From the NCBI GenBank assembly GCA_963765495.1, contig CAVXWP010000009.1, positions 32,001 through 96,000 of the forward strand: a stretch of 64,000 nt of DNA, read 5' to 3'. Shown piece by piece: positions 6,871 through 14,135 of the stretch. A model generated the notes under the pieces. It was not told the origin of the DNA. It saw only the letters and a program-made list of their open reading frames with translations, and made no database searches. The translations under genes and the position numbers were made by a program. The number at the start of each line of letters is the position of its first letter. Position 1 is the first letter of the stretch. Source of the stretch: Blastocatellia bacterium (GTDB lineage Bacteria > Acidobacteriota > Blastocatellia > UBA7656).

Positions 6871-6963
6871 TGATGAATACCTCGCGTTGTCTCTAGTTTC
6901 AACAAAACAAATGATTCCATAAATGAGGCGATTAGAGCAACAGGTTACGCTTGCCATGAGCCT

Positions 6964-7272
6964 GCTCTGAAAATAAAAGGGGTGCTAAATGTTGATAACG
7001 AGTAGATGAAGACAAACAACTCCGAGCCTGTGCGATATTACTTCTGCACAGCTTCATCAAACTGGTTGTCGGTAGGGCATTGGTTAATAAGCATGAGTCT
7101 GCTCTACGTGCTCAAAGGCAACAATTCGGGGTACCAGAAATATGCCCAGGTCAAACTGCTATACAGGCTCGAAGCACCAAGGACCGTTCGACCTTCATAC
7201 CGACATACAAAATTCTATCATGGCTCTCACACATTTTCATCATTCGAAGGTGAGCCGCAGGCTCATGATGAA
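6964..7272 (-). mobile_element. Non-autonomous IS110 derivative carrying a putative bridge RNA, copy 1 (309 bp)
   Basis: Near-identical to 13515-13823 and 13826-14133; bounded by CT (AG on minus) at 6962-6963 and 7273-7274; homologous to the non-coding end of the adjacent IS110; no transposase. Confidence 0.85.
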
Positions 7273-7300
7273 CTGCTATGAAAATAAGAGTAGGTGTTGA

Positions 7301-9635
7301 TCAGGCAGCTTGCTCGACCTCTTCAACAGTTACTCTCAAGCCCGTCCCCTCAAGCTGTCGGATTAATCTTCGCCGCTGCTTCTCTACATTCCTTTTGTCC
7401 AGATAATCTACTCCCAACTCTTTGTAACCGGCTCTCTCTTCTAAGACGTGATATACAATCACAAGTATCGAATGTGCTATTGCTACCAGCGCCTTCTTCT
7501 TCCCCATTCTCTTGACCAGCCTTTTGTACTTCGCTGCAAGGAAACAATCCTTCTGATGCTTGCTGCCCAGGCTGCCTGCACAAGGGCTGCTTTTAGATAG
7601 CTATTGCCCTTTTGGGTTCTTCCACTCTTTCGTTTTCCTGCCGATTGATTATTACTGGGACAGATCGAAGCCCAACTTGAGAGATTCTTGTCTGTTGGGA
7701 AGCAGCTCATATCTACTCCAATCTCAGAGACAATGATCTGGGCTAAGGTCTTTGCGACTCCTGGAATAGAATCGAGAAGCTCAACAGCTTGCTTAACAAA
7801 AGGGTCTGGGGAAGTTTCGACCTCCTGGCTGATCTTCTCTTCAACCCTCTTAATAGAGGATTCAACCGAGTCATACTGATCGAGGAGTTCTTTAAGAATC
7901 CAGCGTTGGGCAGAAGTGAGGCGACCGTGCAAAGCACGCTTCAAGTCAGCCTTCTTACGCTTCATCCTCCGACGAGCAAGGTCGCTGATCTTGTCAGCAT
8001 CGGTTTGACCATCAGCCAAAGCTCTCAGCATCAGCCTGCCGCTAACCCCCAAAGCATCACTAGCGACTTGAGCGAGCTTGATATTGGCGCTTTCAATCAA
8101 CTTCTGAATGCGATTGGCAAGAGCAGTCTGCTCACGGATAAGGCTCTGGCGGTAGCGAGTCAAATCCCTGAGTTCACGGATATGAGGAGGAGGGATAAAG
8201 CTGGGACGAAGCAGACCGTGACGAAGCAGGTCAGCAAGCCACTCACAATCCTTAACATCAGTCTTTCTGCCAGGAACAGCTTTGACGTGGCGGGCATTAA
8301 CCAAAATAACCTCCAGGGAGGATTCGAGGATATTGAAAACAGGCTTCCAGTAAACGCCAGTACTTTCAATAGCGACGTGAGTGCAGCCTTGAGAAGTGAG
8401 CCAGTCGAGCAATAATAGAATTAGATAGTTTTTTGTTTGTTGTGTTGGTGTTTTTTTTTTGTTTTTTTGTGTGTTGGTGTGTTTGGTTTTTTTTGAAGTT
8501 GATATTTAGTTGTTGTTGTTTTATGGATAGGAGTAGAATATAGATGATTTTATGTTTAGATGGATGTTTATGATATATGTTGTGTGTAAAAAAATATTGG
8601 TTGATTTTTTATGTTGAGTGAGTAGGATTGATTTAAGTAAGGATTGTGAGATGTGTTGGTAGTAGGTTGAGTTATTTGATATTAGTGAGTAAGTTTTTAT
8701 TATAAGTTGTTTTAGTTATAGTGAGGAGATGTTATAAGTATGGATTGATGATATTATATAAAGTTATTATTTTACGTTTTGTGGTGTATTAGTGTTTGTT
8801 TAGTGGGAGTATTATGAAGTTTGTTGATATTTTGTGATGTTATATGTGTGAAGGGAATAAAAGTGATATATTTGGTTTTAATTTGAGTTGTTGTGATTTA
8901 GTGTATGTTTATATTGTATTTGTTGTGAGGTTTGTTTATTATGATTGTAAATTAAGTTTGGGGTATTGATATACTTATATCTGATTTGTGGTGTGTGGAT
9001 GTATTGGTAGTATTGTTGGATTGTTATTAGTGTTATATATTGAGTTGGGAATTGGATTAGAGTTTGGAGTATTTTTTCGTGATGGTAGTATTAGAATAGG
9101 TGTTTGTTAAAGTTTGTTTAGGAATTTGGAACTCTGATTAGGGGAGTTACTTCACTAGTTTGTAATATATATATCGACTGAAAATGGTTGGGTTGTAAAT
9201 CAGTATGGATGGTAAAGGTTGTGTTTTGGATAACATCTTTACGTAGTGTTTATGGAGAAGTATCAAGTATGAAGAGGTCTATCTGTATTCTTATGTTTCA
9301 CGAAGAGAAGCTCGACAAAACATTACTAGGTATATGTGATTCTATAATGAAGAGCGTCTACATCAGTCACTCGATTACTGGACACCGGTTGAAGTCGTAT
9401 TTCAGTTGTGAGAATGAGAAACATCAGCGAAACGATTCTATAATGAAAGGAGAAAAGTCCACTTTAGGCATAGGTAATTTTTTGTCTTGATTTTGTGGAC
9501 CACCTTAAGGGCAAGCAAATCATCAGTCATGGTCGAGAAAGTGCGAACCTCTTTGTTGCCGTCAGTGATGAGGCAGGCGACAACGGTGCGAGCGTGAACA
9601 TCAATACCACAGCAAGAGTTGTAAAGAATCTGCAT
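7301..9635 (-). pseudogene. IS110-family DEDD recombinase, split by an insertion (8413-9507) and a frameshift near 7550
   Basis: MQILYNSCCGIDVH...TDDLL / LDWL...VAIESTGVYWKP...GRKTDVKD...CPSNNQSAGK / KKALVAIAHSIL; RBS AAAGGAG upstream. Confidence 0.9.
8413..9507 (+). mobile_element. Degraded IS3-family element with near-complete C-to-T conversion on the + strand
   Basis: Only 4 C in 8411-9131. The 3' part translates ISMDGKG(C)(V)LDNIFT*(C)LWRSIKYEEVYL...FYNEERLHQSLDY(W)TP(V)EV, i.e. OrfB with CGN>TGN and GCT>GTT changes. Poly-A frameshift site at ~8588; right end TGTCTTGATTTTGTGGACCACCTTA. Confidence 0.85.
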
Positions 9636-9859
9636 GATAGAACTCCTTTCGGCATTGGCGGGGAGCCTCAAAACAAAAGAGACTGCTATGCGTGCTCGAA
9701 GCAACAAGTTGTGATGCCTGAAAAGGCTCCCCAAGTCAAACTAACGACCGGGCTAAAGGCACCAAGGCCCGACGACCTATCAGCCAATGACCAGAAGGAA
9801 GGATACATAAACTCTCAGACATTTTCATCCGTCGTGAAGAAGCCTTGCTTCATGGATGC
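9636..9859 (-). ncRNA. Putative IS110 bridge RNA region
   Basis: Non-coding left end containing CTAACGAC (9741-9748, same as target flank 9860-9867) and CTGCTATG (9683-9690, same as right end 7273-7280); exact RNA boundaries unknown. Confidence 0.75.
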
Positions 9860-9942
9860 CTAACGACGAATTCAGCGGCGCGCTGGCGGCAAAGGGAGAA
9901 TGAGGCGGTGGAATGCGGGTCCGGTTGATGGACCAGTTAGGC
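9860..9942 (-). other. Integron attC site flanked by IS110 (R' core) and IS4 (R'' core)
   Basis: CTAACGACGAATTCAGCGGCGCGC...GCGGGTCCGGTTGATGGACCAGTTAGGC; left arm matches attC 4580, right arm matches attC 15633. Confidence 0.9.
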
Positions 9943-12877: not shown

Positions 12878-13429
12878 TTACTCAAAGAGATTATCATCAG
12901 GAAAATGCGATCCTGGCAAAGCTGGTTGAGCATCGGCAATCTCCCCACGACGAAAAATTCTTGGATTTTCTGGATCATCTGATCCGAAGGACTTAATAAC
13001 ATCTAGGTTGAGTAAATCTACATCCCATATAACCACTGTTCCCGCAGCAAAGTAGTCACTTCGCTTCTCAGCAATTTTCTTTTCGGCATTCAGTCCATAA
13101 TCATTCTCGCTTCTAACTTCGACCGCGAAAAGTGGTGCTCCTTCATAGAACTTCATGTGAGGATTGGGTCCAATATAAAACGCCGAATCTGGACTGAAAG
13201 AACCACGATTGGGCAAGTTGACACGAAAGGCTTTATTATCTCCAACTGCTTGCCCTATTTTTGTTTGGCGTGCAAATTGTCTTAAAGATACAAAAATTTC
13301 ATCACCAGCGAACCCTGGGTCTCCTCCGGTAGGTGACATAAGAACAATTTCTCCATTAACGATCTCGGCCTTACCATTTTCAGGAATACTGTAGAGGTCT
13401 TCAATAGAAGCTCTGGCTTTTGTAGTCAT
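12878..13429 (-). CDS. Uma2-family (PD-(D/E)XK) endonuclease
   Basis: KAEIVNGEIVLMSP...FSPDSAF...APLFAVEVRSE...KRSDYFAAGTVVIWDVD. Confidence 0.9.
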   Translation of the reverse strand: MTTKARASIEDLYSIPENGKAEIVNGEIVLMSPTGGDPGFAGDEIFVSLRQFARQTKIGQAVGDNKAFRVNLPNRGSFSPDSAFYIGPNPHMKFYEGAPLFAVEVRSENDYGLNAEKKIAEKRSDYFAAGTVVIWDVDLLNLDVIKSFGSDDPENPRIFRRGEIADAQPALPGSHFPDDNLFE

Positions 13430-13514
13430 AATGTAACCTCACAACCAGAGGATAACATCTGTAGTTTCAGATGTGATCACAATATGAAACATTGGTTCTT
13501 TAGGAAATGGGCTT

Positions 13515-13823
13515 GCTCGGAAAATAAAAGGGGTGCTAAATGTTGATAACGAGTAGATGAAGACAAACAACTCCGAGCCTGTGCGATATTACTTCTGCAC
13601 AGCTTCATCAAACTGGTTGTCGGTAGGGCATTGGTTAATAAGCATGAGTCTGCTCTACGTGCTCAAAGGCAACAATTCGGGGTACCAGAAATATGCCCAG
13701 GTCAAACTGCTATACAGGCTCGAAGCACCAAGGACCGTTCGACCTTCATACCGACATACAAAATTCTATCATGGCTCTCACACATTTTCATCATTCGAAG
13801 GTGAGCCGCAGGCTCATGATGAA
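13515..13823 (-). mobile_element. Non-autonomous IS110 bridge-RNA element, copy 2
   Basis: Differs from copy 1 only near the right end (GCTCGG vs GCTCTG; flanking core TT instead of CT). Confidence 0.85.
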
Positions 13824-13825
13824 CT

Positions 13826-14133
13826 GCTCTGAAAATAAAAGGGGTGCTAAATGTTGATAACGAGTAGATGAAGACAAACAACTCCGAGCCTGTGCGATAT
13901 TACTTCTGCACAGCTTCATCAAACTGGTTGTCGGTAGGGCATTGGTTAATAAGCATGTGTCTGCTCTACGTGCTCAAAGGCAACAATTCGGGGTACCAGA
14001 AATATGCCCAGGTCAAACTGCTATACAGGCTCGAAGCACCAAGGACCGTTCGACCTTCATACCGACATCAAAATTCTATCATGGCTCTCACACATTTTCA
14101 TCATTCGAAGGTGAGCCGCAGGCTCATGATGAA
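13826..14133 (-). mobile_element. Non-autonomous IS110 bridge-RNA element, copy 3 (head-to-tail with copy 2)
   Basis: 311-bp period, shared CT core at 13824-13825; one substitution and a 1-nt deletion relative to copy 1. Confidence 0.85.
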
Positions 14134-14135
14134 CT

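Follow-up and report, generated by a model that had tools for sequence, protein, structure and literature searches.

A recombinase-less IS110 derivative with a putative bridge RNA whose predicted target guide matches the right end of a resident IS110 element

We found that a 309-bp non-coding unit, bounded by AG cores, carries a putative bridge RNA in which the predicted left target guide matches the right end of IS-A, an IS110-family element resident in the same genome and inserted in attC sites. These units are probably non-autonomous and descended from an insertion sequence of the IS110 group (core AG) whose recombinase gene they lost, and they would act as RNA-only hitchhikers whose guide is retargeted to the IS-A/attC hybrid junction and whose recombinase is provided in trans. 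The original prediction of such elements was confirmed as a set of observations and is partly supported as an interpretation. The genome holds six near-identical copies, three of them inside the window (the whole 64,000-nt stretch of DNA analysed), where the unit and its surroundings are organized as follows:

6964-7272, minus strand: copy 1, transposase-less, 309 bp, in the order left end, bridge-RNA paralogue (putative), hairpin, right end; directly right of the IS-A right end
13515-13823, minus strand: copy 2, right end mutated to CCGAGC, with AA as the core to its right
13826-14133, minus strand: copy 3, 308 bp, head to tail with copy 2
14136-14220, minus strand: 85-bp mini-element made up of an IS-B-like left end of 39 nt, a 33-nt stretch and the right end TTATTTTCAGAGC, in attC GGGCGTT-AG
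7273-7274, minus strand: core dinucleotide AG where the IS-A right end meets copy 1, as seen in the sequence and in the flank table
6962-6963, 9860-9861, 13824-13825, 14134-14135 and 14221-14222: further cores, read in the same way
7212-7240, minus strand: promoter-like site within the left end of copy 1 (ATGAAA, 17 nt, TAGAAT, with TG ahead), reading into the putative bridge RNA

Coordinates and identities to copy 1 (100 %, 99.7 % and 99.4 %) agreed with the three near-identical elements of ~309 bp that had been predicted, as did the cores: on the minus strand AG stands on both sides of each copy, the sole exception being the AA on the right of copy 2. The copies outside the window lie at G000:C16:239088-239396, C9:30255-30563 and C2:561275-561583, and 4/6 copies (copy 1 and three others) are mutually 100 % identical. 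The unit retains a ~39-nt hairpin-forming left end, the promoter-like site, a complete putative bridge RNA, a hairpin and the right end ATTTTCAGAGC. Its ends resemble those of the resident IS110 elements, both on the right (TTATTTTCAGAGC versus CTTATTTTCATAGC in IS-A) and on the left, where they have xCATCATGA..GATGAAAAT in common. As predicted from block homology, the unit can be aligned to the non-coding 5' end of IS-A, and likewise to a second IS110 type, IS-B. The recombinase gene is absent (longest internal ORFs of 57-98 aa), and tblastn with the IS-A protein returned IS-A and IS-B only. The promoter-like site is a pattern match only, with 9/12 consensus matches and 2 sites versus 0.7 +/- 0.9 in shuffles. 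At the second locus the copies do stand head to tail behind AGAGCAG ends as predicted, with the correction that the leftmost end belongs to the 85-bp mini-element, which has IS110 ends and no RNA gene and has an 87-bp homologue at G000:C9:30166-30252. The junction between copies 2 and 3 has the same sequence as the would-be circle junction.

The resident element and its target site account for the remainder of the first locus:

7275-9859, minus strand: IS-A, IS110-family, inserted in attC and split by a 1,098-bp insert; product with DEDD_Tnp_IS110 and Transposase_20
8411-9508, plus strand: the 1,098-bp insert in the IS-A recombinase gene, C-depleted; outside the mechanism
9860-9944, plus strand: attC-like site, targeted by IS-A at its GCCTAAC end, with the other half of the split site at 6950-6961; 69-nt repeat ending GTTAGGCCC

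IS-A occupies the position predicted for an IS110 element, to which we add the insert; a public-run contig connects 8410 to 9508 with the insert absent. The genome contains five IS-A copies, of which four are intact, each 1,489 bp, and lie outside the window. All five have flanks (T)CGTT-AG / AG-GC.., with the left flank ending in GTT-AG and the right flank starting with GC or GT after element removal, which identifies IS-A as an attC-targeting IS110 that inserts at the conserved GTTAG/GC end. Three integron integrases above the cut-off and 74 GTCGTTAGGC sites are present in this genome. The precise empty attC is found on a contig of a public soil run, where IS-A, the unit and one core are missing, 2,898 bp altogether. 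Members of the IS110/IS1111 family are known to target the ends of mobile elements, for instance the IS1111-attC group and IS4321/IS5075, the latter inserting at Tn21-type inverted repeats. IS-A and several relatives share with the IS1111-attC group the GTTAG/GC end of attC as an insertion site. They differ from both examples in that the putative IS-A bridge RNA is encoded on the 5' side of the recombinase gene, which is the layout of the IS110 group, and the predicted target of the unit is the end of another IS110 and not a transposon repeat or attC alone.

Rfam 15 gave no match for the bridge RNA. A covariance model (R1) was built from 34 relatives with the unit excluded. The unit scored 89.5 bits (E 8e-17) over its full length (positions 1-162), compared with 97.6 for IS-A, 112.8 for IS-B and 93.6 for a copy in another genus, while nhmmer gave 70.0 bits for the unit versus 72.8 for IS-A; this score, together with the missing gene, bears out the description of the unit as RNA-only. 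In the 34-sequence alignment, 89.5 % of stem cells were paired versus 80.6 % in shuffles (0/500 reach this value), 10/16 pairs in stems change on both sides, and the guide slots lie outside the conserved stems, as their reading as guides had anticipated. A long-range helix of the family pairs the region after the left target guide with the region after the left donor guide; in the unit this helix has just 6 bp, and shuffles do as well. Homology of sequence and structure argues that the unit RNA is a full paralogue of the IS-A bridge RNA. Within this RNA, and in that of IS-A, the following guide positions were read:

9741-9748: IS-A slot 1, GTCGTTAG, equal to its own left flank plus core
9683-9690: IS-A slot 2, CATAGCAG, identical to the IS-A right end followed by the core
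7156-7163, minus strand: predicted left target guide of copy 1 (slot 1), TATAGCAG, guide UAUAGCAG; compare CATAGCAG at 7273-7280
7099-7106, minus strand: predicted left donor guide of copy 1 (slot 2), TAGAGCAG, guide UAGAGCAG; compare its own end CAGAGCAG
7180-7186, minus strand: predicted right target guide of copy 1, CGGUCCU, which predicts a core and right flank of AG-GACCG; just 5' of the UGGUGC stem

All four slot readings behind the claim that the two 8-nt slots co-vary with the element junctions were reproduced, and the same rule was found in 49 related loci. These are the loci, out of 80, in which both ends were assignable; with ends chosen partly by these very matches, left target guide positions 2-8 had 0/1/2 mismatches to the left flank in 35/10/4 of the 49, and the left donor guide had 0/1 mismatch to the element's own right end in 38/11. 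Judged from sequence, one slot is the family's left target guide and the other its left donor guide. We placed the right target guide on the 5' side of the stem enclosing the left target guide; across 41 distinct elements it matched the right flank at a mean of 4.44/7, versus 3.16 +/- 0.14 for permuted flanks (0/2000 reach). The covariation of the right target guide is an independent test of the guide assignment. Fixed-offset scans for a right donor guide, expected to be complementary to the core and the left end, gave no clear position.

Positions 2-8 of the left target guide of the unit equal the IS-A right end plus core, and its donor guide UAGAGCAG matches CAGAGC-AG at 7/7 of the same positions (its own right end AGAGC plus AG). 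The two left guides differ at a single position, the one that separates the IS-A end from the unit end. Read as a whole, the target loop spells ATAGC-AG-G.CC, the IS-A right end plus the right half of attC, which is the type of hybrid junction formed when IS-A enters attC. Since the left guide copies the IS-A end and the right guide resembles the attC half, the preferred target would be this hybrid junction, present only where an IS-A-type element occupies attC. The right flanks of the six copies, against the predicted AG-GACC, are GTCC, GCCC (twice), GCTC, CCCG and TTCA (best 5/6), and the right-guide fit at two element-to-element junctions is 2-3/6.

In the mechanism we propose, the unit RNA would be transcribed and loaded onto a foreign recombinase supplied in trans by resident IS-A or IS-B. 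The unit would be excised as a circle, with its RNA gripping its own junction via the donor guide, and the target loop would pick the insertion site, its left guide (U)AUAGCAG reproducing the terminal 5 nt of the IS-A right end together with the core, and its right guide suiting the right half of attC. The predicted outcome is IS-then-unit composites, stacks and tandem copies, the last arising because the unit's own right end is one base off its target guide. A guide resembling a resident IS110 end would also explain a pile-up beside such ends.

The copies have exact ends, six different right flanks and at least four kinds of left neighbour: two follow IS-A, two follow mini-elements, one stands in tandem and one is solo, so that an IS110-type right end is abutted by 5/6 units, as the flank table was expected to show, and bare attC by 1/6. 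Homing to IS110 right ends, as originally claimed, would explain some of these copies. The left flank matches ATAGCAG perfectly in 3/6 (the right ends of two IS-A copies and of mini-A), has one mismatch in 2/6 (AGAGC-AG, at mini-B and at the unit's own right end) and is unrelated in 1/6, at C2:561275, where bare attC CTCGTT-AG adjoins no IS end. This last flank suits the IS-A guide and not the unit's own guide, so this copy would need later loss of IS-A or insertion directed by IS-A RNA. Among 545 ATAGCAG sites on both strands of the genome, 6 are IS-A-type right ends; the unit is present at 3/6 of these and at 0/539 of the remaining sites, and unoccupied sites include three IS-A right ends and two chance TTTTCATAGCAG sites. 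The left target guide equals a family right end in only three of ~50 distinct elements, namely the unit, IS-B (1/3 copies adjoin a right end) and L029-IS2, a second IS in an unrelated MAG, and each of the three abuts a family right end.

The original claim that this arrangement is undescribed was too strong. MITEPpu9/ssr9 of ISPpu9 in Pseudomonas putida KT2440 (Pares-Guillen et al., NAR 2025, PMC12288879; Gomez-Garcia et al., NAR 2021, PMC8450116) is, in the available text of these papers, a transposase-less, sRNA-bearing IS110 derivative with AG cores and its own minicircles (PMC12288879), just downstream of the IS in 5/8 copies, and with solo copies, tandems in sister strains and a single remnant carrying an internal deletion; the authors describe it as a "hitchhiking selfish gene" (PMC12288879). 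Both elements are of IS110-group origin, lack the recombinase gene and have AG cores, IS-like ends (A box of 41-43 nt and B box of 14-16 nt there; ~39-nt left and 13-16-nt right end here) and a small RNA related to the 5' leader of the recombinase mRNA. They differ in that those texts treat Ssr9 as a regulator pairing with the antisense RNA Asr9, not as a guide-bearing bridge RNA, and report no guide-to-junction match for it. Hosts, sequences and targets are unrelated (REP there, attC here), and circles and RNA were demonstrated experimentally there, whereas the unit is known from sequence alone. By analogy, the unit appears to be a hitchhiker of the MITEPpu9/ssr9 kind, and the arrangement has a precedent; guide-level retargeting was not found in the literature searched.

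Stacking could also arise without any contribution of the target guide, through half-match recombination on the donor side or local tandem duplication, an explanation we regard as unlikely yet the strongest of the alternatives. In its half-match form, a circle junction recombines with any resident right end like its own, and the likeness of the target guide is incidental or left over from an exchange between loops, as might be suspected from the single position that separates the two guides of the unit. The two AGAGC-AG left flanks have 0 mismatches to the donor guide versus 1 to the target guide, so half-match recombination explains both at least as well as homing does, and the other flanks of right-end type are just one base off the donor guide. 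The available text of recent preprints (Hu et al. and Xie et al., bioRxiv 2026) describes expanded IS110 loci in which non-coding repeats and whole IS110 modules stack head to tail at occupied sites, as here, and insertion yields LT/RD and LD/RT hybrid junctions; tandem non-coding repeats beside IS110 recombinase genes (n = 468) have boundaries that are mostly left-donor-only matches (10.64898/2026.08.14.744561), and recombination of this type is reported for IS621 (10.64898/2026.08.31.748434). Stacking is ascribed there to one-sided matches with the guides of the resident element, whereas the unit brings its own guide RNA, with a target loop that spells the LD/RT hybrid junction. Against incidental likeness, the lone guide difference coincides with the position that distinguishes the IS-A end from the unit's own end. 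Furthermore, the target guide of L029-IS2 matches its neighbour's end at 8/8 and its own donor guide, AAGGAGAG, is off at 4/8, so donor-side matching cannot explain that junction. Finally, all three elements whose target guide is of right-end type lie against a right end, and in the set examined none lacking such a guide was shown to adjoin an IS110 end.

Less likely again is that the unit is immobile alone and moves only within a composite (IS-A left end plus unit right end), solo and tandem copies having arisen by deletion, IS-A excision or unequal recombination. Two identical IS-A-plus-unit composites in different attC sites are what this account expects, the empty-site contig is missing both elements together, the solo copy in bare attC is the expected remnant of precise IS-A loss, and ISPpu9 circles containing tnp plus ssr9 are known (PMC12288879). 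However, ssr9-only circles exist in the same P. putida precedent, and copies of the unit are found behind two recombinase-less mini-elements and behind another copy. In addition, the 79 % identical copy in another genus stands alone, with exact ends, within a protein gene that it splits, and no IS-A-like recombinase was found in that genome with the query used (0/2 genomes searched). That copy retains stems, guides and ends; its left flank fits poorly (5/9 in register, 6/8 with one base looped out), which counts against homing, and its right flank fits at 6/7.

That the copies are inert relics or assembly duplications is very improbable: the tandem pair 13515-14133 is covered by no contig of the one public run holding the region, the C-depleted insert of the window IS-A may be an assembly or base-calling fault and relatives carry truncated bridge-RNA remnants without a recombinase gene, but the sequence identity of 4/6 copies, the variety of their flanks, the preserved features of the other-genus copy and a public contig across IS-A and the unit, at ~6 times the depth of its unique flanks, all speak against it.

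Returning to the hitchhiker reading, the predicted guides of this family follow the rules of the IS621-type bridge RNA (Durrant et al., Nature 2024, PMC11208160) in that the core dinucleotide is part of the guide segments, one guide is identical to the top strand of the left target, another to the right end of the element itself, and a third is complementary to the right target; natural targets likewise have 0-2 mismatches. The layout differs: in IS621 the bottom-strand-pairing guide is 5' and the top-strand-pairing guide 3' in the same loop, whereas in this family the top-strand guide is 5' of a stem enclosing the bottom-strand guide. Two further differences are the long-range helix of this family and its units with no recombinase gene beside the RNA.

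Sequence comparison revealed three copies of the 309-bp unit, a transposase-less element carrying a bridge-RNA paralogue, in the window. These copies, the IS110 element IS-A and an 85-bp mini-element all read on the minus strand of the window, which corresponds to G000:C9:32001-96000, and a second mini-element lies just beyond the window:

6964-7272, minus strand, unit copy 1
7275-9859, minus strand, IS-A
13515-13823, minus strand, unit copy 2
13826-14133, minus strand, unit copy 3
14136-14220, minus strand, 85-bp mini-element without an RNA gene
G000:C9:30166-30252 (contig coordinates), 87-bp mini-element without an RNA gene

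Three further unit copies were found in this genome (G000) beyond the window, and identity among all six is 99.4-100%. The original prediction of 309-bp units with AG cores and two slots that co-vary with the element junctions was borne out, and it now extends to six copies and to a right target guide. IS-A is present in five copies (intact length 1,489 bp), and its product contains DEDD_Tnp_IS110 and Transposase_20 domains; the window copy is interrupted by an insert of 1,098 bp. IS-B, a second IS110 type, is present in three copies, and its protein is 69% identical to that of IS-A.

The elements form stacks in integron attC sites. In element orientation, the first locus reads attC-left GTCGTT-AG, IS-A, AG, unit, AG, GCTCATGG, and the attC end GTTAGGC is restored once IS-A and the unit are removed. 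The second locus reads attC-left GGGCGTT-AG, the 85-bp mini-element, AG, copy 3, AG, copy 2, AA, GCCC. In a third stack, just beyond the window, attC-left GTCGTT-AG is followed by the 87-bp mini-element (which has IS-A ends), AG, unit, AG, IS-B, AG and GCTTGC. Both mini-elements have ~32 nt between a 39-nt left end of IS110 type and a right end of 13-16 nt, are inserted in attC sites, and carry a unit on their right side. Because their middles are homologous (GAAAATAAG ... GAAT(T)CAAYAACTTAG), they represent one family of end-only elements rather than separate deletions. One unit copy sits in a bare attC, which may be a leftover after IS-A loss or an insertion under IS-A's RNA. The genome encodes three integron integrases scoring over the NCBIfam cut-off and contains 74 GTCGTTAGGC sites, and the genes around the elements include the cassette-typical DUF433, DUF5615 and Uma2.

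The cassette array at the IS-A locus is a collection point of several IS families. An IS4-family transposase gene (Nterm_IS4 and DDE_Tnp_1; 9953-11377, minus strand) adjoins the attC holding IS-A. At 1485-1630 (plus strand), a remnant of a fourth IS110 type lies in an attC (GAATTCGTCGTT-AG), carries the left target guide TGCGTTAG, and ends past its GGCACC stem at an IS3-family element (start TGGAGTTGACC, OrfA-like product).

The unit could be aligned with IS-A and IS-B at their 5' non-coding ends across every conserved block. To this comparison were added the regions 5' of the genes at 80 loci with related recombinases (44-74% identity, mainly in Acidobacteriota MAGs). In a 34-sequence alignment, two stems had 89.5% of cells paired, compared with 80.6% in shuffled sequences (0 of 500) and 27-51% when partners were slid, and 10 of 16 stem pairs changed on both sides. 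Slot 1, the left target guide that reads the left flank and core, occupies columns 67-74 within the loop closed by the first stem, while slot 2, the left donor guide that reads the element's own right end and core, occupies columns 148-155 directly 3' of the second stem. The concern raised with the original prediction, that the slots might fall in paired stems, did not materialize, as both lie outside the stems in this alignment. The stretch after slot 1 also pairs with a stretch ~25 nt past slot 2 in a long-range helix (mean longest run 8.6, compared with 6.0 in shuffles; 54 sequences), which is 11 bp long in IS-A, 10 bp in IS-B and only 6 bp in the unit; a column-pair scan overlooked this helix owing to poor alignment of its 3' part.

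A covariance model constructed with the unit excluded matched it over its full length at 89.5 bits, and scored IS-A at 97.6, IS-B at 112.8 and a unit copy from another genus at 93.6. A search of window positions 5000-16000 against Rfam 15 (E up to 1) gave no matches. RNAalifold was uninformative on three sequences and on a MAFFT alignment, as was single-sequence folding, where the probability of being unpaired was 0.4-0.65 for the slots in G000 elements; the left target guide had lower values, 0.17 and 0.29, in the copy from genome G024 and in L029-IS2, an IS110 described below. A putative promoter-like site, found by pattern match only, is present in the unit (ATGAAA-17-TAGAAT with TG, 7240-7212), and its spacing, judged by eye, is alike in IS-A and IS-B. 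The unit is very probably a non-autonomous IS110 derivative carrying a bridge-RNA paralogue.

Guide rules were derived across the family from 49 loci in which both ends could be assigned. At these loci, slot 1 corresponds to the left flank and core and slot 2 to the element's own right end, which always consists of (A)TTTTC, five bases and the core (AG, AA or AC). Because ends were picked partly by these matches, slot-to-end match counts at these loci are not independent. Independent support came from the G000 elements, whose ends were fixed by comparing copies in different flanks, and from the right target guide, a 6-7-nt stretch directly 5' of the UGGUGC stem that is complementary to the core and right flank. 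Across 41 distinct elements, this guide matched its right flank at a mean of 4.44 of 7 positions, compared with 3.16 ± 0.14 for permuted flanks (0 of 2000). GAGCCU, which lies 3' of the left guide, was ruled out as the right target guide because it is the 5' strand of the long-range helix. Fixed-offset scans gave no clear peak for the right target guide and found no right donor guide. This arrangement differs from that of IS621, for which the accessible part of the published description places both guides in one loop, the bottom-strand guide 5' and the top-strand guide 3' (PMC11208160). In the family of the unit and IS-A (alignment A4, 34 members; IS-A window 9650-9800), the right target guide instead lies 5' of the stem enclosing the left target guide, and a helix of 8-12 bp connects the region that follows the left target guide to that ~25 nt past the left donor guide.

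We then read out what each guide pair specifies. The guides of IS-A (left GTCGTTAG, right CGGGCCU) specify the attC end GTCGTT-AG-GCCC, which was found at all five copies. Those of the unit (left UAUAGCAG, right CGGUCCU) specify ATAGC-AG-GACC. The left half of this target is the IS-A right end (7/7 at positions 2-8, position 1 being mostly unmatched family-wide), and the right half is one base from the common attC right halves GTCC and GCCC. The unit's predicted target is thus the LD|RT hybrid junction that IS-A insertion produces, in which the helper's right end is joined to the right half of the target attC. IS-A arrived first, because its guides fit an intact attC and do not fit the left end of the unit. 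ATAGCAG occurs at 545 sites in G000, six of which are IS-A-type right ends; the unit is present at three of these six, leaving three unoccupied, and at none of the other 539. The heptamer alone is therefore insufficient as a target, and a further contribution must come from the conserved TTTTC that precedes the end, from the right half of the attC or from co-travel with IS-A. At two unit junctions, the donor guide fits better than the target guide. With moderate confidence, we favor guide-directed homing of the unit to IS-A junctions as the full mechanism.

Other elements also appear to be aimed at IS110 right ends. In L029, an Entotheonellaceae MAG contig, two distinct IS110s are arranged head to tail; the left target guide of the second, L029-IS2 (CAGAGCAG), equals the first element's right end and core (8/8), and its donor guide (AAGGAGAG) matches its own right end. 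IS-B carries the left guide AAUAGCAG and the right guide ACAGCCU, the latter predicting AG-GCTGT, and its three observed right flanks start with GCTC or GCTT. One IS-B copy lies behind the unit's right end (6/7), and no right end adjoins the other two. Of all elements in the comparison, the unit, IS-B and L029-IS2 are the only ones whose left target guide is identical to a right-end heptamer of the family. The commonest such heptamers are ATAGCAG (7/49) and AGAGCAG (8/49), so a guide of that type would suit many relatives. These cases raise an evenly balanced proposition, that some IS110-type elements, both the RNA-only unit and the full elements IS-B and L029-IS2, are RNA-guided parasites of other IS110s, with a target loop set to the helper's hybrid junction so that they would home to its right end, be carried along with it and assemble into ordered stacks. 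The stacks here would then comprise three tiers, the first with protein and RNA, the second with RNA only and the third with ends only.

A further set of candidates was rejected. Right-end-like left flanks in relatives (TTTC at -11 to -8, 7/49) had other transposase genes or contig ends upstream and no IS110s, and L050 shared just 15 nt with the L052 right end. Separately, at L048:3150-3720, an IS110 lies within another IS110's recombinase gene at the conserved STGVYWK motif codons; with its left flank ACTGGAAG and left target guide CUUGGAAG, it looks like an element aimed at IS110 recombinase genes.

The closest known system is MITEPpu9/ssr9 of ISPpu9. As far as the accessible parts of its two accounts go, it resembles the unit in belonging to the IS110 group, in its AG cores and IS-like end boxes of near-equal length, in lying directly downstream of the IS, and in its solo and tandem copies and end-only remnant (PMC12288879; PMC8450116). 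MITEPpu9 minicircles have been shown experimentally in that work (PMC12288879; PMC8450116). Ssr9 is treated, in the part consulted, as a regulator pairing with an antisense RNA and not as a guide-bearing bridge RNA (PMC12288879). The original interpretation finds support in the sequence logic, and MITEPpu9 anticipates part of it. What would be new is guide-coded homing to the helper's hybrid junction, for which three concordant cases argue. Our literature search turned up no description of bridge-RNA-only elements and none of target guides directed at IS110 ends. A 2026 preprint, in its accessible portion, describes stacks of non-coding repeats at hundreds of IS110 loci and attributes this stacking to one-sided matches (10.64898/2026.08.14.744561). 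If the guide logic is real, head-to-tail IS110 growth would be coded and not mere mismatch tolerance, a natural bridge RNA would have been reprogrammed against another mobile element's junction, and a recombinase would be steerable in the cell by a guide RNA from a different, protein-less element. It could also account for the position of MITEPpu9 downstream of ISPpu9, and stacks within attC sites may hinder integron cassette movement. For annotation, at least one recent large bridge-RNA survey, by its accessible text, retained only sequences flanking a recombinase gene and would therefore have overlooked RNA-only elements.

BLAST searches with the unit matched 3 of 53 family genomes and 3 of 401 class genomes, G000 included; in the other two genomes, the match was a full copy (G024) and a 95-nt fragment (G018). 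The G024 copy, from another genus, is 79% identical with stems and guides intact, and interrupts a protein gene at GTCATAGT-AG-AAGTAG. AG-GAGTA, the sequence predicted by its right guide, matches the flank at 6/7, and its left guide fits more poorly (5/9 in register, 6/8 with one base looped out). An IS-A-like recombinase was found in neither genome with this query. The ~95-nt stretch in G018 (L011, contig C205) is intergenic, follows a purS-like gene, is 76% identical to unit positions 204-298, and spans the unit's hairpin and the portion beside the right end with no adjoining bridge RNA; it represents either a degenerate unit copy or the origin of the unit's 3' portion. Scanning metagenomes with a 19-nt unit stretch yielded 25 loci, all unrelated and lacking recombinase or bridge-RNA features, and five covariance-model matches in relatives that had no recombinase gene (L131-L135) were truncated remnants.

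Signs of recent movement came from the contigs of one public soil-metagenome run, X1, which may be the source sample. A single contig covers the unit and IS-A at a depth of 17.9, compared with ~3 for unique flanks, and lacks the 1,098-bp insert. None of the sequencing runs listed for the region is an RNA run. A second contig, 368 nt long, joins window 6619-6959 to 9858 onward, a precise empty attC lacking IS-A, the unit and one core, and the insertion is therefore polymorphic within or between soil populations. Runs X1 and X2 yielded no contig over 12908-14500 (the tandem pair) or 8636-9436, and such contigs prove presence, not absence.

The insert in the IS-A recombinase gene (8411-9508) has 54 C over 1,098 bp, and its first ~700 nt contain no C at all. 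Converting C to T gives a 92% match to G000:C2:553748-554578; it has T at 176 of 194 C sites of that copy, plus 20 G-to-T and 6 A-to-T changes, and all differences are to T on a single strand. In a public-run contig that lacks the insert, 8410 is joined directly to 9508. The insert reflects an error in base calling or assembly, or else it is a copy of another IS that was hypermutated on one strand.

Three candidate hitchhikers were rejected because they proved to be IS110s with the bridge RNA 3' of the recombinase gene, in the order left end, gene, RNA, right end, with the RNA inside the element:

L068:1100-2676, IS110 of the 3'-RNA sub-lineage
L069:2800-4400, IS110 of the 3'-RNA sub-lineage
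L045:4700-6020, IS110 of the 3'-RNA sub-lineage

Guides in this sub-lineage still fit the flanks (in L068, left guide GAAAUGAA, donor guide CAGGUGAA and right end ATTTTCAGGTGAA), and the layout could have arisen if the IS and the RNA-only unit of such a composite had fused.
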